Shown in pieces: positions 1,376 to 22,103 of a DNA stretch of 25,110 nt. Source of the DNA: Sulfurimonadaceae bacterium. GTDB taxonomy: Bacteria; Campylobacterota; Campylobacteria; Campylobacterales; Sulfurimonadaceae. The stretch covers positions 1-25,110 of the forward strand of contig JBFEXS010000020.1 in the NCBI GenBank assembly GCA_041562555.1, read 5' to 3'. The notes beneath the pieces are model-generated. The model was not told the origin of the DNA, searched no databases, and saw only the letters and a program-made list of their open reading frames with translations. A program made the translations under genes and the position numbers. The stretch's first letter is position 1. Every line of letters begins with the position of its first letter.

Positions 1376-2341
1376 ATGCAAGAAACAAACAATTATATCT
1401 GTCCGACCCCTGAACGTCTCGATAAGTTTCTAAGTGAGGTCTTGGACACTACCCGTAATCAGGTCCTTTCTTTGATCAAAGACGGACATGTCAGTGTGGA
1501 CGGTAAAACCGTACATAAACCGGGTCTCAAACTTAAAACTGAGCAAAAAGTTGTTATAGAGTTTCCAGAACCGGTCATTACCGAACCTATGGAAATAGAC
1601 TTTGATGTTCCTATCCTCTACGAAGATGACGACATCTTGGTCATCAATAAACCCAAAGGGCTCACTGTTCATCCTGCCCCTTCCGTAAAAGAGGCCACGC
1701 TTGTAGACTGGCTTAAACACAAAGGCATTCGCCTCTCGACGATCAGTGGTGAAGAGCGACACGGTATTGTACACCGCCTGGATAAAGGCACTACGGGGGT
1801 GATGGTTGTCGCCAAGAACAATGAGACCCATGAAGCCCTCTCGAAACAGCTTCAAGACCGTACCATGGGACGTTTTTACCTTGCTGTCATCAACATCCCT
1901 CTTAAAGAGAATATCATCGTTGACAAACCCATAGGCCGAAGTTCGACCAATCGTCTCAAGATGGCAGTCGTCGACGGGGCCAAAGCCTCAAAGACAGAAT
2001 TTTCCAAGCTCTATCCTTCAATCGATGAGAAAAGCGAACTCATCGCCTGTAAACTGTACAGTGGCAGGACCCATCAGATCCGTGTCCACCTTGAAAGCCT
2101 TGGCAGAGGGATCATAGGTGACCATTTATACGGATTTAAGAGCAAAGAAGATAAAATCAACGAGATTTTCTTACATGCATATATATTATATTTCATACAT
2201 CCGACATCCGGAAAAAAGATGGAGTTTGTAGCCCCGATTCAAGAAGGCATGAAGAACTACCTAAACGATAATTTTGATATGGAGTTTATCAATGAAGCAA
2301 CTGATCCTGCCAACTTTAGTCGCCACTTTATTGCTCACTAG
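1376..2341 (+). CDS. rluD: RluA-family 23S rRNA pseudouridine synthase with S4 domain (RluD-like)
   Basis: ERLDKFL S4 start, INKPKGLTVHP, catalytic VHRLDKGTTG and GRTHQIRVH; GAGG RBS upstream. Confidence 0.9.
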   Translation: MQETNNYICPTPERLDKFLSEVLDTTRNQVLSLIKDGHVSVDGKTVHKPGLKLKTEQKVVIEFPEPVITEPMEIDFDVPILYEDDDILVINKPKGLTVHPAPSVKEATLVDWLKHKGIRLSTISGEERHGIVHRLDKGTTGVMVVAKNNETHEALSKQLQDRTMGRFYLAVINIPLKENIIVDKPIGRSSTNRLKMAVVDGAKASKTEFSKLYPSIDEKSELIACKLYSGRTHQIRVHLESLGRGIIGDHLYGFKSKEDKINEIFLHAYILYFIHPTSGKKMEFVAPIQEGMKNYLNDNFDMEFINEATDPANFSRHFIAH

Positions 2342-3545
2342 CGGTTGTACTCCTCAGCCAAGTGCTCCCGTAGAACCTACTATAGACCCTACGCTTCCGA
2401 AGGTAAATGTAAACGGACACATCGAATCCATGAGCAGTATCGCTTTCGAATGGAAACCGCTCAAAGACCCGCGTGTCAAAGGCTATTATATCTATCGTAA
2501 TGATCCTGAAGCAAATGATCATGAACTAAGCCGCCATTCCAGTGTAGAAAGCCGGTTTGCCTCACACTTCACCGATACCAAGCTGCAGCCGAACACGACC
2601 TATGTCTACCGTTTTTCAAGCTATGACGAACAGCTACATGAGTCAGATGCTTCTAAAACCTTTAGGGTAACGACCAAACCCGTGCTTACCTCTGTAAGCT
2701 TCTTTGATTCTGTGGGCAATCTGCCTCGTATGGCAAAACTGATCTGGCGTCCTCACGACGATTCGGGAGTCAAAGGATATATCCTGGAACGCCAAACAGT
2801 AGAGAAAGCGGATTGGGAAGAGATAGCCCGCATAGACAATCGTCTTCAAGCTGAATACATCGATACAGACCTCGATGACAACCGTGTCTATAAATACCGA
2901 CTACGGGCAATAACCTATACAAATGTCATCTCTACCCCGAGTGACATCGCCAAAGTAATCACCAAGCCCCTGCCAAAAGAGATCCAAAGTGTACATGCGA
3001 GTACTGATCAACCAAAACGCATCCAGATCACATGGACCGCAGCCAGTGAAATGGACATAGACTACTATAAGATCTACCGCTCAAGCAGCTCCGAGGGCGG
3101 CTACAGTTACCATGCCAAACTCAATGAGACCGAATTTACCGACGAAATTGACGAAGACGGAGAAAACTACTACTACACGATAACTGCCGTTGACAAAGAT
3201 GGGCTCGAAGGTCCGCAACAAAGTTCACCTGCCCATGGAAGTACCCTTGTGAAGCCGGAATCACCAAGTTTCATCGATGCCACTGTAACGAACAACTCAG
3301 CCGTCCTTAGTTGGAAAAACAATGACAGCCGTACCAAAAGCTATACGATCATCAAGACAACCAAGGAGTCCTGGATCAGCTCGACGACCCAAGAGATCAC
3401 AGGTGTGACGGAAACAAATTATACCGTCAACGACCTTCTCCCAGATACACAATACAAATTTCAAGTAATGGCTGTAGATGAGAACGACATCAACTCTGTA
3501 CCGACAGAGCCGGTTGACGTTCTATTCTCTACACCGGATAGATAA
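2292..3545 (+). CDS. flpA: Fibronectin type III repeat lipoprotein (FlpA/Cj1279c-like)
   Basis: ATG at 2292 after GGAG (2281-2284); lipobox LLTSG-C; about four FN3 repeats (W...Y.IYR...LQPNTTYVY, LLPDTQYKFQVMAVD); lies between rluD and trmB as in C. jejuni. Confidence 0.8.
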   Translation: MKQLILPTLVATLLLTSGCTPQPSAPVEPTIDPTLPKVNVNGHIESMSSIAFEWKPLKDPRVKGYYIYRNDPEANDHELSRHSSVESRFASHFTDTKLQPNTTYVYRFSSYDEQLHESDASKTFRVTTKPVLTSVSFFDSVGNLPRMAKLIWRPHDDSGVKGYILERQTVEKADWEEIARIDNRLQAEYIDTDLDDNRVYKYRLRAITYTNVISTPSDIAKVITKPLPKEIQSVHASTDQPKRIQITWTAASEMDIDYYKIYRSSSSEGGYSYHAKLNETEFTDEIDEDGENYYYTITAVDKDGLEGPQQSSPAHGSTLVKPESPSFIDATVTNNSAVLSWKNNDSRTKSYTIIKTTKESWISSTTQEITGVTETNYTVNDLLPDTQYKFQVMAVDENDINSVPTEPVDVLFSTPDR

Positions 3546-14331: not shown

Positions 14332-14400
14332 CACTCTTTTCAGCAATTATCACACTCTCTTTTTTTCCTTCTCTTCAACTATTTATCATCTTATTTTAGA

Positions 14401-14406
14401 TAGAAT
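14401..14406 (+). promoter_or_regulatory. Putative -10 box for argG
   Basis: TAGAAT after a T-rich tract, 33 nt before the ATG. Confidence 0.45.
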
Positions 14407-14439
14407 CGCGATAATAAAATCCTCAAAAGAAGGTCTTTC

Positions 14440-15672
14440 ATGAAAAAAGAAGTAAAAAAAGTTGTTTTAGCCTATTCAGGCGGTTTAGATACAAGTGTTA
14501 TTTTAAAATGGTTACAAGATGAGTATCAATGTGAGGTTGTAACGTTTACAGCTGACCTGGGTCAGGGAGAAGAACTTGAACCGGCTCGTTTAAAAGCCCT
14601 CGAACTTGGTATCAAACCTGAGAACATTTTTATTGATGACCTTAGAGAAGAGTTTGTCAAAGACTTTGTTTTCCCAATGTTCCGTGCTAATGCAATTTAT
14701 GAAGGTGAATATCTCTTAGGTACTTCTATCGCCCGTCCGCTTATCGCAAAGCGTCAAGCAGAGATTGCCAAGATCACCGGTGCAGATGGTGTAGCGCATG
14801 GAGCGACAGGCAAAGGAAATGATCAGGTACGTTTTGAAATGGGTTACCTTGGTCAAGATTCTACATTGACAATTATTGCACCTTGGAGAGAGTGGGATCT
14901 AAACTCCCGTGAAAAGCTTTTGGCATATGCACGTGAACATGGTATTGCAATCGATAAGAAACATCTTGATGAGAACGGGAACCCTAAAGCAAGCCCATAC
15001 TCGATGGATGCCAACCTTCTACACATCTCCTATGAAGGGCTTCATCTAGAGGACCCGTTTGCCGAGCCTGAAGATGACATGTGGTTGTGGACCAATTCTC
15101 CGGAAAATGCTCCAGATGAACCGGAATACATCGAGATAGGTTATGCCCATGGTGATCCTGTAACCCTTAATGGGAATACGCTAAGCCCGGCCACTATGCT
15201 TAAAACATTGAATGAGCTTGGAAACAAGCACGGTATCGGACGTATTGATATTGTAGAGAACCGCTTTGTCGGTATGAAAGCGCGTGGATGTTATGAGACT
15301 CCGGGCGGGACAATCATGCTAAAAGCACACCGAGCAATCGAATCTATCACCCTTGATAGAGAAGCTGCCCATCTCAAAGATGAGATGATGCCGCGTTATG
15401 CGAAACTGATTTACAATGGTTTCTGGTTCTCTCCTGAACGTGAGATGCTACAGGCTTCTATTGACAAATCACAAGAGTTTGTCAATGGGGTCGTTCGCCT
15501 AAAACTGTACAAAGGCAATGTGATCGTTGTCGGACGCCAATCTGTCGACTCACTTTTCAATGAAGAATATTCAACCTTTGAAGAAGACGAAGTCTACAAT
15601 CAAAAAGATGCAGAAGGCTTTATCAAGCTGAATGCTTTACGCTTTATCATTGCAGGAAAAGCACGTAAATAA
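14440..15672 (+). CDS. argG: Argininosuccinate synthase
   Basis: [35 protein letters not shown] and YETPGGT motifs. Confidence 0.98.
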
Positions 15673-15678
15673 GCGATA

Positions 15679-15700
15679 GACAGATGCACTTGCATCGGTC
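15679..15700 (+). terminator. Stem-loop after argG (possible terminator or stabilising hairpin)
   Basis: GAC-A-GATGC-ACTT-GCATC-G-GTC, 6 nt after the stop; no clear U-tract. Confidence 0.35.
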
Positions 15701-15791
15701 AATAATTTAGACTTACAAAAGCCTGCTATGCATTTGCGTTGGGCACCTCTCATCTTATAAACTATCTTTTAAAAACAGAAGGTGAGTCATT

Positions 15792-15797
15792 TATAAT
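15792..15797 (+). promoter_or_regulatory. Putative -10 box for the FTR-rhodanese gene
   Basis: TATAAT 22 nt before ATG 15820, followed by the AAAGG RBS. Confidence 0.55.
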
Positions 15798-15819
15798 TTT
15801 TTACAAAGGTCATATCGTT

Positions 15820-16551
15820 ATGAGTACTGAAATGAAAAAAGTTGATCCGGAGTCAGCTGAATTTAAAATCGAGTTAGAAAAAACAATCAAGTTTACTGAT
15901 AAAGTCATTGCCCAATTTGGTTATGCCTATAACCCGGATACACAGATCAATGAGGGTATTCAAATGGGACTTACACGCAACAAACTCATCTATGACAAGC
16001 GTTATTGTCCCTGCTTTTTTGTGACAGGGAATAAAGAAGAAGACAGAATCTGCCCATGTAAACCTGCTATTGAGCATGAGATCCCTAACGACGGCGTCTG
16101 CCATTGTCAAATCTTCTGTACTCCTGAGTATGCTGCGGCCAAAGCATGTAAAGATGAACTTGAAGCGGTCACCCACGAGCATTCCCGTGGTTTGACCACT
16201 GCCGAATGTGAACTACTACTGAGTAAGACTGATATTGACACGGATGAGTTGACCTCTTTACTTGAAGCCCGTGAACTTGGTATGGTTGATTTTAATCTTG
16301 TAGATGTACGTGAATGGATGGAGCATCAAAGCGGTCACATCAAAGGAACTGACGCCCTCGTACCTACGACAAGCTTTTTTGATTCCCTTGCCAAAGCTGC
16401 ACTGGACACAGACAAAAGCTTGATCGTCTATTGCCATGTAGGTAGCAGAAGTGCCCATTGTCAACGTATTCTATCCGACAAGATGAACTTCAGATCTGTT
16501 ATCAATCTTGCCCACGGGATCTCCGGTTATAGAGGGGAAGTAATCCGTTAA
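15820..16551 (+). CDS. Ferredoxin:thioredoxin reductase catalytic-subunit domain fused to a rhodanese domain (243 aa)
   Basis: GL..NK..Y...YCPC, ICPC and CHC motifs typical of the FTR catalytic chain; C-terminal LVDVRE.ME...GHIKG...VYCHVGSRS...NL.HGI rhodanese. ATG 15820 has an RBS (alternative 15832). Confidence 0.88.
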   Translation: MSTEMKKVDPESAEFKIELEKTIKFTDKVIAQFGYAYNPDTQINEGIQMGLTRNKLIYDKRYCPCFFVTGNKEEDRICPCKPAIEHEIPNDGVCHCQIFCTPEYAAAKACKDELEAVTHEHSRGLTTAECELLLSKTDIDTDELTSLLEARELGMVDFNLVDVREWMEHQSGHIKGTDALVPTTSFFDSLAKAALDTDKSLIVYCHVGSRSAHCQRILSDKMNFRSVINLAHGISGYRGEVIR

Positions 16552-16574
16552 CAATTTACATCTAAGTGCAATTT

Positions 16575-16583
16575 TGATAGAAT
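16575..16583 (+). promoter_or_regulatory. Extended -10 promoter for the rplI operon
   Basis: TGATAGAAT, with TAAGT 10 nt upstream of the hexamer. Confidence 0.6.
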
Positions 16584-16609
16584 CACTGAAATAACTATAA
16601 AGAGAAAAA

Positions 16610-17056
16610 ATGAAAGTATTATTAATCAAAGATGTCAAAAGCCTTGGAAAAGCGGGTGAAGTCAAAGAAGTGAAAGATGGCTATGGTCAAAACTTCTTGA
16701 TTGCCAAAGGTTTGGCCAAAGCAGCCACCAATGCTGTTCTAAATCAGCACAAGGCTCATGAAAAGAAGAAAGCCGAAGATGAAGCAGCTGAACTGGAGAG
16801 GCTTAAAGAAGTAAAAGAGAAGCTAACAACACTGGTAACGACAATCAAGAAAAAAGTAGGAGAAAACGGACATCTTTTTGGTGCCGTAACCAAAGATGAG
16901 ATTGCCCATGCCGTTGAAGAACAACATAATATTCATATCGACAAAAAACACATTGTCCACAAACTTTCGATGAAAGAACTCGGAACACATGAAATTGATC
17001 TAAAACTCGGGCATGGATTACATGCTATGATGAAGATTGATATTGTCAGTGAATAA
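16610..17056 (+). CDS. rplI: 50S ribosomal protein L9
   Basis: [30 protein letters not shown] and GHLFGAVT. Confidence 0.98.
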
Positions 17057-17067
17057 GAAAGGTCAAG

Positions 17068-17604
17068 ATGTTTGATGCGACTACGATACTGGCATATAAG
17101 GGTAAAGACAAGGCAGTGATCGGTGGGGATGGACAGGTGACCTTTGGAGACTCTGTTTTAAAAAACAATGCCACAAAAATCCGCACCCTCTATAAAGGTG
17201 AGATTCTTGCCGGCTTTGCGGGTTCTACAGCTGATGCCTTCAATCTATTCGATATGTTCGAAGATTTTTTGGCCAATCGTAAGGGTGATCTTATCAAAGC
17301 TGTTATCGACTTTTCAAAGGCATGGAGAAAAGATAAAGTACTCCGTCGTCTTGAGGCCATGATGATAGTCCTGAACCGAGAACACATCTATATACTGACA
17401 GGAAACGGTGATGTTGTTGAACCTGAGGATGGGGAGATCGCATCTATCGGTTCTGGGGGAAATTTCGCTATTTCAGCTGCACGCGCGCTTAAACGACATG
17501 CTGATATGGATGAAGAATCTCTGGTACGAGAATCTCTACAGATAGCTTCCGAACTTTGTATCTACACGAATAATAATATTAAACTTCTTTCACTGGACAC
17601 CTGA
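17068..17604 (+). CDS. hslV: ATP-dependent protease peptidase subunit HslV
   Basis: [20 protein letters not shown] and SIGSGGNFA motifs. Confidence 0.98.
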
Positions 17605-18942: not shown

Positions 18943-19842
18943 ATGAGTGAGAAATCAATCGAAGACACAACCAAAAGTGGTTTTGTTGCAATTGTCGGTC
19001 GGCCTAATGCAGGTAAAAGTACACTTATGAATGCTCTGCTGGGTGAGAAGATTTCCATGGTCTCTCAAAAAGCCAATGCCACACGCAAGCGGATCAATGC
19101 AATCGTTATGCATAAGCATAATCAAATTATCTTTGTAGATACCCCTGGACTACACGAAAAAGAGAAGATGCTCAATCAATTCATGCTTGAAGAGGCGCTT
19201 AAGGCTATAGGTGATTGTGATCTTACTCTATTTTTAGCGCCCGTAACGGATTCGACGCAGGAATATGAGAAATTTTTAAAACTCACAAAACGCCCTCATA
19301 TTGTTCTGTTAAGCAAAATCGATCATGTAAGCAATGAAAAAATCTTGCAAAAGATCGAGGAGTATCAGGCTTTTCAGGAGCATTTTCTTGCCATTATCCC
19401 GGTCTCCGTGACAAAAGGTGGGATAGGCTTTGAATCCGTTCTGGATGAGATCTCCAAACATCTCCCTATATCTCCTTATTTGTATGATCCTGAAGATCTG
19501 ACAACGGAGATGTTACGTGATATCTACAAAGAGTTTATTCGAGAAGCGATTTTCAATAATATTTCGGAAGAGATCCCTTATGAGTCCGATGTACTTATCG
19601 ACAAAGTCGAAGAAGGAAAAAACCTTGAGAAAATCCGTGCTACGATTATTGTAGAAAAGCAGACCCAAAAAGGTATCATCATCGGTAAAGGTGGTTCAGC
19701 TATCAAGCGTATAGGCAAAGATGCACGTTTACAAATTGAAAACCTGATTGGAAAAAAAGTCTTCCTGGATCTTTTTGTCTCTGTGAAGAAAGGATGGACG
19801 AACGATAAGAAATTTTTAGAGGACATGGGCTATAAGTTTTAA
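18943..19842 (+). CDS. era: GTPase Era
   Basis: GRPNAGKS, DTPG, EEIPY and KH-domain IIIGKGG; start reassigned to ATG 18943 after AAGGA. Confidence 0.96.
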   Translation: MSEKSIEDTTKSGFVAIVGRPNAGKSTLMNALLGEKISMVSQKANATRKRINAIVMHKHNQIIFVDTPGLHEKEKMLNQFMLEEALKAIGDCDLTLFLAPVTDSTQEYEKFLKLTKRPHIVLLSKIDHVSNEKILQKIEEYQAFQEHFLAIIPVSVTKGGIGFESVLDEISKHLPISPYLYDPEDLTTEMLRDIYKEFIREAIFNNISEEIPYESDVLIDKVEEGKNLEKIRATIIVEKQTQKGIIIGKGGSAIKRIGKDARLQIENLIGKKVFLDLFVSVKKGWTNDKKFLEDMGYKF

Positions 19843-20801
19843 TGCGCATATTATTTCTATTGTATTTCACCTTGTCACTTTATGCAGACGAGTCCTTACT
19901 TGACACCTATCAAAAAAAAGGAGTTGAGAGTATTGAACAGTCCTTTGATCGGATATTATCCTCCAAAAAGTATTGGGATAGCAGGCTTGAGGATATCAAC
20001 ACAAGTTTTGGATACTTTGAAAGTATTGACTACCTGCTCTCTTGTGATAAGAACAGCTCGAGCCTAAGGTTTTATGTCAAAGACAAGAACAACAGTTTTC
20101 AATTGCATGAAAACTTTTCCGCCTTTGTCGGGGCCAAAAAAGGAGACAAGTACAAAGAAGGCGATCTAAAAACACCTATAGGCGTATACAAACTTATTCA
20201 AAAACTTGAAAAAGTTGACAGCTTTTATGGTCCCCTTGCCTTTGTCACTTCGTATCCAAATACCTTTGACAAGATAAAAGGAAAAAATGGTTCTGGCATT
20301 TGGGTACACGGTCTGCCTTTGCATCAAAAAAGAGATGACTTCACACGTGGTTGTATCGCTATTAACAATACAAGCCTTGAACATTTAGACTATGATATTG
20401 ACCCGAGCAGAACACTGGTATATATTGACGAGGCAGACTATCCGGTTGTTAAAAAAGAAGATTTGGCCCTTTTACTCAGTCAGTTGTATCAATGGAAAAC
20501 AGCCTGGAAAGAAAACGATATAGAGACCTACTTAAGCTTTTACGACAACCTTTTTAGACGTAGTGACGGACTTGATTTCAATGCTTTTTCAAGCTATAAA
20601 AAACGTATTTTTGCAAAACAGGAATATAAACAAATACACTTTTTTGATATAAATATACTGCCTTATCCGACAAAGGAAAACAACATATTCTTGATCAGTT
20701 TCAATGAGCAATACCGGTCTACTAACTACCAGTTTTCCGGGACTAAAGAGCTTTATGTAAAATTAACCGATGACCACTTTACAATCTTAGCCGAGAAATA
20801 G
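19842..20801 (+). CDS. pgp2: YkuD-family peptidoglycan L,D-carboxypeptidase (Pgp2/Csd6-like) with NTF2-like C-terminal domain
   Basis: Signal peptide; GDKYKEGDLKTPIGVY, SYPN.FD, GSGIWVHG and TRGCIA; W..AW...D...YL.FY tail; follows era as csd6 does in H. pylori. Confidence 0.85.
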   Translation: MRILFLLYFTLSLYADESLLDTYQKKGVESIEQSFDRILSSKKYWDSRLEDINTSFGYFESIDYLLSCDKNSSSLRFYVKDKNNSFQLHENFSAFVGAKKGDKYKEGDLKTPIGVYKLIQKLEKVDSFYGPLAFVTSYPNTFDKIKGKNGSGIWVHGLPLHQKRDDFTRGCIAINNTSLEHLDYDIDPSRTLVYIDEADYPVVKKEDLALLLSQLYQWKTAWKENDIETYLSFYDNLFRRSDGLDFNAFSSYKKRIFAKQEYKQIHFFDINILPYPTKENNIFLISFNEQYRSTNYQFSGTKELYVKLTDDHFTILAEK

Positions 20802-22103
20802 ATGAAAACACTTGTTCTATTAATCCTATTTGCCACATTATTGTTTTCCTTTGATCGCTTTAAACTGTACAAAAAAGAGGGAAAAGAAAAAGGACCCACT
20901 CTACTTATCTTTGCAGGGATACATGGAAATGAGCCGGGTGGTTATTTTGCCGCTTCCATACTAGTTGAACACTACACCATCAATCAAGGTGCTCTCTGGA
21001 TCGTTCCCAACACTAATAAAGAGAGTATTATTCGTTATAAACGCAGCATCAATGGGGATATGAATCGAAAATTCTCAAGTATATCCCATGACGATAAAGA
21101 CCTGCCTATTGTCAATGATATCAAGAATCTAATCACATCCGAAAAAGTCGACTTGATATTGAACCTGCATGATGGGCACGGTTTTTTTAGAGAAAAATAT
21201 CAAAACACTATCTTTAATCCCGGAGCATGGGGACAGACCTGCGTCATTGATCAAATGCAGCTTGATAATAACAATAGTTTCTCAAACCTTGGTTGTATCG
21301 CACAACAAGTGAGTGATAAACTCAATCAACATCTCTTACAGGATCATCATGGCTTTAATGTCCGTAACACCAAAACGAAAAAGAAAAAAAATGAGATGCA
21401 ACACTCCTTAACCTACTTTGCAATAAACAACAACAAACCTGCCTTTGCAATCGAAACAAGTAAAGAGCTTCAAACGACTGCGCAAAAAGTCTATTATCAA
21501 CTCCGTGCTATTGAGGCATTCATGCAAATCATGGGTATTGAATACCAAAGAGACTTTGATTTAGATTCTGAAAGTGTAAAAAATATCACAAAAAACAGTG
21601 GTAAAATCACAATTAACGGCAATATAAGCCTCAACTTGGACAATTTAAGAAAAAATTTAAGTTATATTCCGCTACAATCAAATAAGAACGAGTTATACTT
21701 CTCACATCCCCTTGGGGACGTGGTGAAGGGTGATGGGTTTATTGATTTATATGTTGGACACAAAAAGATCTCTCATTTGAAAACTTCCAAATTCCGTTTG
21801 GAAAAGTGTGAGGGGCCTTTTGAAGCAGTTATTGACGGGAGGGTGGAATCTATTCATTTACCTTCAGAAGTTAGAATAACGTCCGATATAGTCCTTAAGG
21901 CACCTCGGGATTACCGATTGAATGTGATCGGTTATACGGATCCGAGGTACAAAAATGAATTGGGAATAAAAATTGCTAGAACTTCACTGCTGAAACGGTT
22001 TTCGCTTGATCGCGAAGGACTTCGGTACAGGGCTGAGTTTTATAAACAAGACGCCTTTTGTGGAATGGTGATTTTAAATTATGCAGTTAGGAATAATGAA
22101 TGA
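20802..22103 (+). CDS. pgp1: M99-family D,L-carboxypeptidase (Pgp1/Csd4-like)
   Basis: Signal peptide; GIHGNEPGGY, GDMNRKF, LNLHDGHGF, WGQTCVIDQ, SLTYFA and AFAIETSKEL motifs. Confidence 0.87.
   Translation: MKTLVLLILFATLLFSFDRFKLYKKEGKEKGPTLLIFAGIHGNEPGGYFAASILVEHYTINQGALWIVPNTNKESIIRYKRSINGDMNRKFSSISHDDKDLPIVNDIKNLITSEKVDLILNLHDGHGFFREKYQNTIFNPGAWGQTCVIDQMQLDNNNSFSNLGCIAQQVSDKLNQHLLQDHHGFNVRNTKTKKKKNEMQHSLTYFAINNNKPAFAIETSKELQTTAQKVYYQLRAIEAFMQIMGIEYQRDFDLDSESVKNITKNSGKITINGNISLNLDNLRKNLSYIPLQSNKNELYFSHPLGDVVKGDGFIDLYVGHKKISHLKTSKFRLEKCEGPFEAVIDGRVESIHLPSEVRITSDIVLKAPRDYRLNVIGYTDPRYKNELGIKIARTSLLKRFSLDREGLRYRAEFYKQDAFCGMVILNYAVRNNE

Follow-up and report, generated by a model that had tools for sequence, protein, structure and literature searches.

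What is a protein likely to do in which the catalytic domain of a ferredoxin:thioredoxin reductase (FTR) is joined to a rhodanese? The question is raised by a 25,110-nucleotide stretch of a Sulfurimonadaceae genome (assembly GCA_041562555.1, contig JBFEXS010000020.1, positions 1 to 25,110 of the forward strand), here called the window, which encodes such a fusion protein of 243 residues. Much of the primary production and sulfur cycling at vents and in sulfidic waters and aquifers is due to free-living Campylobacterota; to our knowledge, their cytoplasmic handling of sulfane sulfur is poorly known. An earlier interpretation, made from the letters of the window without database searches (the sequence-only reading), had proposed a ferredoxin-driven persulfide or polysulfide reductase. 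Analysis of domains, homologues, genomes and predicted structures showed that the gene is real and strongly conserved in free-living, sulfur-associated Campylobacterota. The function that we favour, tentatively, is reduction of sulfane sulfur or of a mixed disulfide held on the rhodanese cysteine.

Domain composition, invariant residues and predicted structure

The gene is a single open frame of 243 codons on the plus strand, running from an ATG at 15820 to a stop codon at 16549-16551. Both this uninterrupted frame and the cysteine positions given by the sequence-only reading (C63-P-C65, C78-P-C80, C94-H-C96 and C205-HVGSRS) were exact. The listing of open reading frames (ORFs) also offered an upstream TTG start at 15739, giving 270 aa; orthologues begin with an N-terminus matching the ATG start (MSxxIKKIDPES), and the ATG is therefore favoured. 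The proposed domain assignment was confirmed by a Pfam scan, which placed both domains above their curated cut-offs: FeThRed_B (PF02943), the FTR catalytic chain (FTRc), at E 1.2e-31 and 109.3 bits versus a cut-off of 22, and Rhodanese (PF00581) at E 5.4e-12 and 46.5 bits versus 22.2. The CPC...CPC...CHC pattern with its intervening His is that of an FTR catalytic chain, and the C-H-V-G-S-R-S segment aligned with the Cys loop of PDB 6mxv and carries the active-site Cys of active rhodaneses. The C-terminal half is a rhodanese and not the rubredoxin of Methanosarcina-type ferredoxin:disulfide reductase (FDR), and the Pfam scan of the fusion protein found no FAD/NAD(P)H pyridine-nucleotide disulfide oxidoreductase domain.

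No NCBIfam model was reached above its cut-off in a scan of the fusion protein. For example, FtrB_double_U (FtrB family double-selenoprotein) scored 67.1 bits versus an equivalog cut-off of 160, and its redox-active positions are Cys codons in the fusion gene, with no TGA. The MoeZ/MoeB adenylyltransferase-sulfurtransferase model scored 38.4 bits versus 647, with the rhodanese part alone aligned.

A search for homologues of near-equal length gave 1694 matches at E <= 0.001 among 2006 candidates, and the best 120 of these 1694 (64-100% identity) all contained both Pfam domains. For residue conservation, the best near-length homologues were combined with fused ORFs from the fetched loci, which gave 244 sequences, or 219 after deduplication on the last 200 residues, reaching down to ~45% identity. 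Thirteen positions were invariant in 219/219: C63, P64, C65, C78, P79, C80, C94, C96, C100, C205, G208, R210 and S211. H95 and S209 were each kept in 218. C100 is thus an additional invariant Cys beyond the six FTR cysteines, and C205 is the sole invariant Cys within the rhodanese half. A preponderance of split homologues or of homologues lacking C205 had been named beforehand as the outcome that would speak against the proposal; instead, homologues were mostly fused and all 219 retained C205. That the six FTR cysteines bind a cluster and form a disulfide, as the sequence-only reading had it, is reasonable given their invariance and their motif homology to solved FTRc and FDR chains. As to individual residues, we take C63, C78, C80 and C94 to be the 4Fe-4S ligands and C65-C96 to be the active disulfide, as in the literature on Synechocystis FTR.

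Other residues were less constant. H121 and H119, which belong to a linker motif (HxHSRGL), occurred in 214 and 211 of the 219 sequences, and C130 and C214 in 204 and 198, the two cysteines being lost independently of one another. A Zn site or disulfide built from H119, H121, C130 and C214 was excluded, as C130 and C214 are lost independently and the HxHSRGL motif is missing from the fusions of one family (f5). A universal disulfide within the rhodanese half is likewise ruled out, because C205 is its only invariant Cys and C130 and C214 vary independently. The invariance of C205 argues for persulfide chemistry or for a mixed disulfide with the other domain or an external partner.

The AlphaFold2 model (62-sequence alignment) had a mean pLDDT of 88.7 and a pTM of 0.65, and residues 114-122 were the only segment below a pLDDT of 50, in agreement with the linker that had been placed between the domains. 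The model suggests two confidently folded domains whose relative placement is uncertain. Reaching C65 or C96 from C205 appears sterically plausible via a disordered linker of ~13 residues. A complex prediction of the FTRc half (residues 1-113, with 4Fe-4S) against the rhodanese half (residues 123-243) gave scores of 0.03 and 0.07 (mark, 0.32). Foldseek matched the FTRc half to FTRc-type structures (7pwe, 4tpu, 7bzk and 1dj7) and the rhodanese half to 2kl3, 3tp9, GlpE (1gmx) and YgaP (5hbl), with Uba4 (6yub) also listed. Profile matches of the FTRc half in PDB included 4tpu (FDR), 7pwe and 1dj7/2pu9 (FTRc). No solved chain combining FTRc and rhodanese domains was found by profile or fold searches of PDB.

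Occurrence of the fusion and linkage of its two domains

We checked the occurrence of the fusion in 301 Campylobacterota genomes, the window's own genome and 300 others, with a match threshold of E <= 1e-10. Matches were present in 84 genomes, of which 69, including the window's own, had an uninterrupted match spanning both domains and 14 had FTRc-only or rhodanese-only matches. The distribution divided sharply by family: the intact fusion was found in 68/86 sampled genomes outside families f2 and f3, and in 0/214 within them (0/90 in f2 and 0/124 in f3). These are two large families with genomes of 1.4-2.6 Mb, presumably the host-associated Campylobacter-like and Helicobacter-like ones. Elsewhere the fusion was present in all sampled members of f1 (23/23, window's genome excluded), f7 (15/15) and f9 (2/2), in most of f4 (10/12), f11 (7/11), f5 (5/7) and f12 (3/4), in fewer of f8 (2/6) and f6 (1/3), and in none of the single genomes of f10, f13 and f14 (0/1 each).

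The closest named relatives were from Sulfurimonadaceae, Sulfuricurvum, Sulfurimonas and Campylobacterales metagenome-assembled genomes, and further named carriers included Sulfurospirillum, Sulfurovum and Nitrosophilus. Among the labels of 80 loci, 'Pseudomonadota bacterium' occurred once and 'Arcobacter sp.' twice. A search of 1.84 billion 50%-identity representatives gave 1441 matches at E <= 0.001; among the best 150 of these, only P0121, P0122, P0124, P0125 and P0128 were full-length across both domains, accompanied by truncated ones, and the motifs were kept in all. In the ESM Atlas, 8 clusters contained both Pfam families, and Campylobacterota was the commonest phylum in the 3 listed. 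Larger fusions that might name the donor or acceptor were looked for among proteins of 427-2000 aa; none matched at E <= 1e-10, a negative of little weight.

Two genomes showed altered forms of the gene. In G043, a complete genome, overlapping ORFs of 66 aa and 175 aa take the place of the single fusion frame (L122, 3179..3893), which reflects either a frameshift or pseudogene or else a sequencing error. G216, the sole f2 genome with a match, has an FTRc without rhodanese directly 5' of rplI-hslV-hslU (L137, 3318..3761, minus strand); its position at the fusion's syntenic site looks like domain loss.

The two domains were also found as neighbours without being fused. Separate, adjacent FTRc and rhodanese genes occurred in G289, G291, G297 and G269 (f4) and in G296 (f5), and G289, G291 and G297 had the fusion elsewhere in the genome as well. 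In addition, an extra rhodanese gene adjoins the fusion in G130, G274 and G007. The FTRc-adjacent rhodaneses matched the fused rhodanese domain at E 1e-17 to 1e-21, and none of the nine other rhodanese matches in the window's genome reached 1e-10 against it. In the rhodanese-domain tree, these nine were on branches of 1.3-6.5 changes per site; the tree was poorly resolved around the origin of the split rhodaneses, whether by fission or not. In the FTRc-domain tree (114 columns), fused and stand-alone forms were mixed, with at least 4 changes required by the starred branches, so that the domains were repeatedly fused, split or exchanged. The split pairs and the repeated fusion or fission support a persistent partnership of FTRc and rhodanese. 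Thus, the functional tie between the two domains assumed in the sequence-only reading is backed by separately encoded neighbours in two lineages.

Further arrangements of FTRc genes were seen in the same phylum. In f5, a conserved cluster consists of an FTRc gene, an FTRc-rhodanese fusion, two small ORFs without family match (97 aa and 107-120 aa), sometimes a rhodanese gene (G007), and a gene for a 580-590-aa CiaB/DUF7897 protein. It is divergent from glnB-amtB in L121 and L129, and in L125 an RNase T/ExoX-like gene and two ORFs without family match lie upstream. Some genomes of the phylum contain a third family of FTRc fusions, of 206-225 aa, with FeThRed_B at E ~1e-16 to 1e-17 and a C-terminal domain that lacks the Cys expected at the CPxP site. 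Two members were scanned: the one in L169 had a weak TusA match at its C-terminus (E 0.0096, below cut-off), and the one in L171 had no second family. In the FTRc tree these proteins group apart as a long-branched clade of their own (100/100), and their neighbours are not sulfur-related.

Candidate function and competing explanations

Starting from the observed domains, invariant residues, distribution and genomic linkage, we infer a cluster, an electron donor, a direction of reaction and a substrate as follows. The product would be a cytoplasmic redox enzyme of two modules. By homology, the N-terminal FTRc module would hold one 4Fe-4S cluster, with the disulfide beside it, and would accept single electrons from a ferredoxin-type donor without a variable subunit. 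In the single-Cys rhodanese, C205 would become a persulfide by collecting sulfane sulfur from thiosulfate, from polysulfide, or from persulfides of proteins or of low-molecular-weight compounds. Two ferredoxin electrons would open the C65-C96 disulfide; the C65 thiolate would then attack C205-S-SH, or a mixed disulfide at C205, across the flexible linker; and H2S would leave, or the sulfur be handed on, as C65-C96 re-formed. The net result would be a ferredoxin-dependent, NAD(P)H-independent reduction of sulfane sulfur. We place the core of this proposal, that ferredoxin reduces the 4Fe-4S/C65-C96 centre and that this centre passes the electrons to sulfane sulfur or a mixed disulfide at C205, a little short of an even chance. 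It is supported by the clear scores of both domains, by conservation of the FTR cysteines and of C205-x-x-G-S-R-S, by linkage of the split pairs, and by two kinds of precedents: fusions of FTRc-like domains with redox or thiol partners (4tpu, 7pwe) and of rhodaneses with persulfide catalysts (3icr, 3nta, 8a56, 5ve3). No match to the FTR variable subunit (FeThRed_A, PF02941) was found in the window's genome (88.9% complete), the positive control being detected in Synechococcus; this, the TrxB of the other sampled genomes and the 2-oxoacid:ferredoxin oxidoreductase of the window's genome, both described below, also count in its favour.

Regarding physiology, sulfane-sulfur homeostasis or sulfide supply is more likely than respiratory reduction of S0, because the neighbours are housekeeping genes and the fusion is near-universal in free-living members. 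The argG-fusion-rplI(-hslV-hslU) order was seen in 105/122 loci with the fused gene, and the S0-reducing role that had been suggested earlier found no support in this context. In the other 17 loci, neighbours included DsbD, DsbH-like, DksA, gyrA, RuvB and CiaB/DUF7897. The scan of 25 ORFs of the window at E <= 1e-5 agreed with the sequence-only reading that thioredoxin, ferredoxin and the FTR variable subunit (FeThRed_A) are not encoded there.

Several observations weigh against the proposed sulfane-sulfur reductase. The housekeeping neighbourhood (argG, rplI, hslVU) is itself one of them, as is the lack of sulfur-energy genes near the fusion in the 17 remaining loci. The pTM is only 0.65 and the linker is of low confidence in the AlphaFold2 model. 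The FTRc of G216 lacks a rhodanese at the syntenic site, and G014, G032, G034, G040 and G091 have only stand-alone FTRc with no close rhodanese paralogue. With fused and free forms mixed in the tree, FTRc could have the same chemistry in both states and may serve the same, possibly thioredoxin-like, partners in either. Finally, no FTR-family gene by name or Pfam number was present among the entries listed in the Sulfurovum indicum supplement of regulated genes, e.g., S0 versus thiosulfate oxidation (PMC10045233). These listed entries also held no PF02943 or 'thioredoxin reductase' item, and they included two or three up-regulated adjacent rhodanese genes with PF00581 annotation only (PMC10045233). 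A search of the PMC9948710 supplements gave no match, and the PMC13609358 supplements contained no FTR entry and two named rhodaneses that could not be mapped to the FTRc-rhodanese family.

The first alternative is that the protein is mainly a ferredoxin:thioredoxin (or other disulfide) reductase, with the rhodanese in an accessory role, either substituting for the missing variable subunit or sensing cellular sulfane sulfur to gate FTR activity; we regard it as unlikely. Its FTRc module is complete, and the intermingling of fused and stand-alone forms looks as if they were interchangeable. The fusion is the only FTRc match in most sampled genomes of the window's own family (a single match at E <= 1e-10 in 19/23), and more than one match was found in G254, G263 and G276 and also in the window's own genome, which is outside the 23. 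Reduction of an atypical thioredoxin has been reported for the FDR of Methanosarcina (PMC6262447). The window's genome contains several thioredoxins (11 thioredoxin-family matches, 9 of them above cut-off). However, a catalytic Cys and loop invariant in 219/219 sequences would be superfluous in a domain that served only for structure or shielding, and FTRc and rhodanese remain adjacent in two lineages when separately encoded. Furthermore, each of the 300 other sampled genomes had the NADPH-type thioredoxin reductase TrxB at E <= 1e-40, so that the phylum does not rely on FTRc or the fusion to reduce thioredoxin. That the tethered rhodanese replaces thioredoxin as the target, as in the sulfane-sulfur reductase that we favour, is plausible, although the thioredoxins of the genome and the mixed FTRc tree speak against it.

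In the window's genome itself, no TrxB (TIGR01292) was found over cut-off (best 53.5 bits versus 343; genome 88.9% complete), probably because of an assembly gap. The idea that FTRc replaces a missing NADPH-thioredoxin reductase was rejected in view of the 300/300 occurrence elsewhere. The same genome encodes a 2-oxoacid:ferredoxin oxidoreductase, so ferredoxin-linked metabolism exists in it. It also has a second, stand-alone FTRc of ~113 aa (contig C1:71741-72067; L001 1459..1800, plus strand) between aspS, on the opposite strand, and nadK-recN. Its two CPC motifs are separated by a longer insert, and its ending is likewise CHCGIFC; in G289, G291, G297 and G269 a separate rhodanese gene comes after the orthologous gene.

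A second alternative, improbable in our view, is biosynthetic sulfur trafficking, in which the C205 persulfide would feed a MoaD/ThiS-type thiocarboxylate carrier, tRNA thiolation or Fe-S assembly and the FTRc dithiol would resolve an acyl-disulfide or protein disulfide. A housekeeping neighbourhood would fit biosynthesis, Uba4 appeared in the fold search, and the best NCBIfam rhodanese matches were the rhodanese domains of MoeZ/MoeB (E 6.7e-10 and 2.5e-9, far below cut-offs). However, these matches are at the domain level only, no sulfur-carrier or adenylyltransferase gene was linked in the loci examined, and the fusion was not found in any of the 214 f2 and f3 genomes, which are assumed to make the same cofactors.

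The third alternative, very improbable, is that another chalcogen or metalloid is reduced at the rhodanese Cys, for example to deliver selenium (with selenite or perselenide as its source) or to reduce arsenate or tellurite, as hinted at by weak selenoprotein-related matches (FtrB double-selenoprotein, given above, and rhodanese_LYCAU, E 6e-5) and by an FTR catalytic-subunit selenoprotein with Sec at the two redox-active Cys positions in marine metagenomes (PMC2398784). Every such match is below cut-off, the residues are Cys throughout, no selenium or arsenic gene is linked in the window, and ArsC/Spx-family genes occur near split pairs only, across gatC and on the opposite strand. Moreover, the active-site loop has six residues, the length of sulfurtransferases, whereas Cdc25/Acr2-type loops are longer.

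If the sulfane-sulfur reductase proposed above is correct, low-potential ferredoxin would be coupled directly to persulfide chemistry, giving an NAD(P)H-independent route to sulfide. Rhodanese would gain a new catalytic partner and the FTR-type 4Fe-4S/disulfide centre a new class of physiological substrate. The proposal is directly testable, as the protein is small and soluble (243 aa), Cys-to-Ser variants can serve as controls and natural split versions exist. A broader and doubtful extension is to see in the fusion a third class of persulfide-processing enzymes with a tethered rhodanese, one that evolved independently and reduces sulfane sulfur strictly with ferredoxin, using neither flavin nor pyridine nucleotide. 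Such an enzyme would be near-universal in free-living, sulfur-cycling Campylobacterota and lost in host-associated lineages. Bacterial FTRc would then be primarily a sulfur-relay reductase, and thioredoxin reduction in cyanobacteria and plants a later specialisation. The split FTRc and rhodanese pairs and an FTRc/TusA-like fusion in the same phylum would, if this were true, point the same way.

Features of the gene and its surroundings are collected in Table 1. The -10 box and ribosome-binding site of the sequence-only reading are present as TATAAT and AAAGG, both as consensus matches only; six promoter-like sites, this TATAAT among them, occur in 15500-16750 versus a mean of 2.8 in shuffles. 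Sequencing runs listed for 14400-17100 of the window were four DNA runs of one study, with no RNA run among them. Elsewhere in the window, two adjacent genes (19842..22103, plus strand) resemble the helical-cell-shape peptidoglycan peptidases of the phylum. One contains a YkuD L,D-transpeptidase-type domain and a Cds6 C-terminal NTF2-like domain, and the other has Peptidase_M99 ('carboxypeptidase controlling helical cell shape'); next come an ORF of 511 aa that matched no family and a PilO-like ORF. A 423-aa ORF (2274..3545, plus strand) has fibronectin type III and purple-acid-phosphatase N-terminal-like domains; with first-start calls it runs into the beginning of a 413-aa Methyltransf_4 ORF, and the start codons here are probably mis-set.

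Table 1. Positions of the fusion gene, its parts and neighbours in the window, and of related FTRc genes in other loci.
Feature	Sequence	Positions	Strand	Evidence
243-aa FTRc-rhodanese fusion protein CDS (P0001), stop codon included	Window	15820..16551	+	ORF, Pfam, homologues
FeThRed_B (FTR catalytic chain) domain, residues 18-115	Window	15871..16164	+	Pfam, PDB profile and fold matches
Cysteine cluster, residues 63-100 (C63-P-C65...C78-P-C80...C94-H-C96...C100), presumed 4Fe-4S ligands and redox disulfide	Window	16006..16119	+	Invariance, homology
Inter-domain linker, ~residues 114-126, with H119-x-H121-S-R-G-L motif	Window	16159..16197	+	Low pLDDT, residue conservation
Rhodanese domain, residues 146-238	Window	16255..16533	+	Pfam, PDB matches
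Rhodanese active-site loop, C205-H-V-G-S-R-S211	Window	16432..16452	+	Conservation in 219 homologues
TATAAT promoter-like -10 hexamer, 23 nt 5' of ATG	Window	15792..15797	+	Consensus match only
AAAGG, possible ribosome-binding site, 10 nt 5' of ATG	Window	15805..15809	+	Consensus match only
argG (argininosuccinate synthase), conserved upstream neighbour	Window	14440..15672	+	Family match, synteny
rplI (ribosomal protein L9), conserved downstream neighbour; then hslV, hslU	Window	16610..17056	+	Family match, synteny
f5 cluster	L121	3291..7134		
f5 cluster	L125	3338..7377		
f5 cluster	L129	3265..5769		
Third FTRc fusion family	L168	2697..3374	+	
Third FTRc fusion family	L169	2735..3382	-	
Third FTRc fusion family	L170	2664..3284	+	
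Third FTRc fusion family	L171	1128..1787	-	

Comparison with known FTR-type and rhodanese systems

The open literature that we searched contained no experiment or paper on an FTRc-rhodanese fusion, although it may have been catalogued in print, and the sequence-only reading, which knew of no characterised enzyme of this architecture, was to that extent right. The architecture is already named in JGI annotation, as 'ferredoxin-thioredoxin reductase catalytic subunit/rhodanese-related sulfurtransferase'. Like the catalytic chain of plant and cyanobacterial FTR (1dj7, 2pu9, 7bzk), the protein has the FeThRed_B domain and the CPC...CPC...CHC motifs with His between the last two Cys, and presumably uses the same ferredoxin-driven chemistry of a 4Fe-4S cluster and an adjacent disulfide. 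It differs in the invariant C100, in the variable subunit, for which the window's genome (88.9% complete) gave no match, in having a tethered rhodanese and not free thioredoxin as its obvious thiol partner, and in its host, which is chemolithotrophic and not photosynthetic.

A parallel in domain organisation is provided by the rubredoxin-bearing FDR of Methanosarcina acetivorans (4tpu) and a glutaredoxin/FDR fusion from Desulfotalea psychrophila (7pwe), in which an FTRc-like domain without variable subunit is fused to a second small domain. Profile E-values were 9.6e-11 to 4tpu and 6.1e-8 to 7pwe, and Foldseek E-values 1.5e-5 for 7pwe_B and 9.6e-5 for 4tpu. In contrast to these proteins, the partner in the fusion is a rhodanese, a persulfide carrier, and not an electron-transfer domain or glutaredoxin, and the third motif is CHC where the aligned residues of 4tpu are C-Y-C.

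On the rhodanese side, single-domain thiosulfate:thiol sulfurtransferases such as GlpE (1gmx), PspE (2jtq) and YgaP (5hbl) share the single catalytic Cys, the short C-x-x-G-x-R/S-S loop and the rhodanese fold of ~100 residues. Sulfurtransferases of this type work as separate proteins, their acceptor being a free thiol or thioredoxin, whereas the fusion protein has a dithiol-generating module built in. The design in which a catalytic module for S-S bonds is tethered to a rhodanese whose Cys bears or offers sulfane sulfur is also seen in CoADR-RHD (3icr), the NADH-dependent persulfide reductase of Shewanella (3nta), CoA-persulfide reductase (8a56) and PRF (5ve3, persulfide dioxygenase-rhodanese). 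Only the rhodanese halves of 3icr, 3nta and 8a56 matched the fusion protein, as did the rhodanese of 5ve3. The catalytic module of the fusion is an Fe-S/disulfide FTRc of ~100 residues, and not an FAD/NAD(P)H oxidoreductase or a dioxygenase of metallo-beta-lactamase fold, and its presumed donor is ferredoxin and not NAD(P)H or O2. By analogy, the fusion protein may work like the flavin persulfide reductases and PRF while standing outside their families, and would be a ferredoxin-driven counterpart of the flavin CoA-disulfide-reductase-rhodanese persulfide reductases. We therefore describe it as an uncharacterised variant of two known kinds of protein, the FTRc/FDR fusions and the rhodanese-tethered persulfide enzymes.

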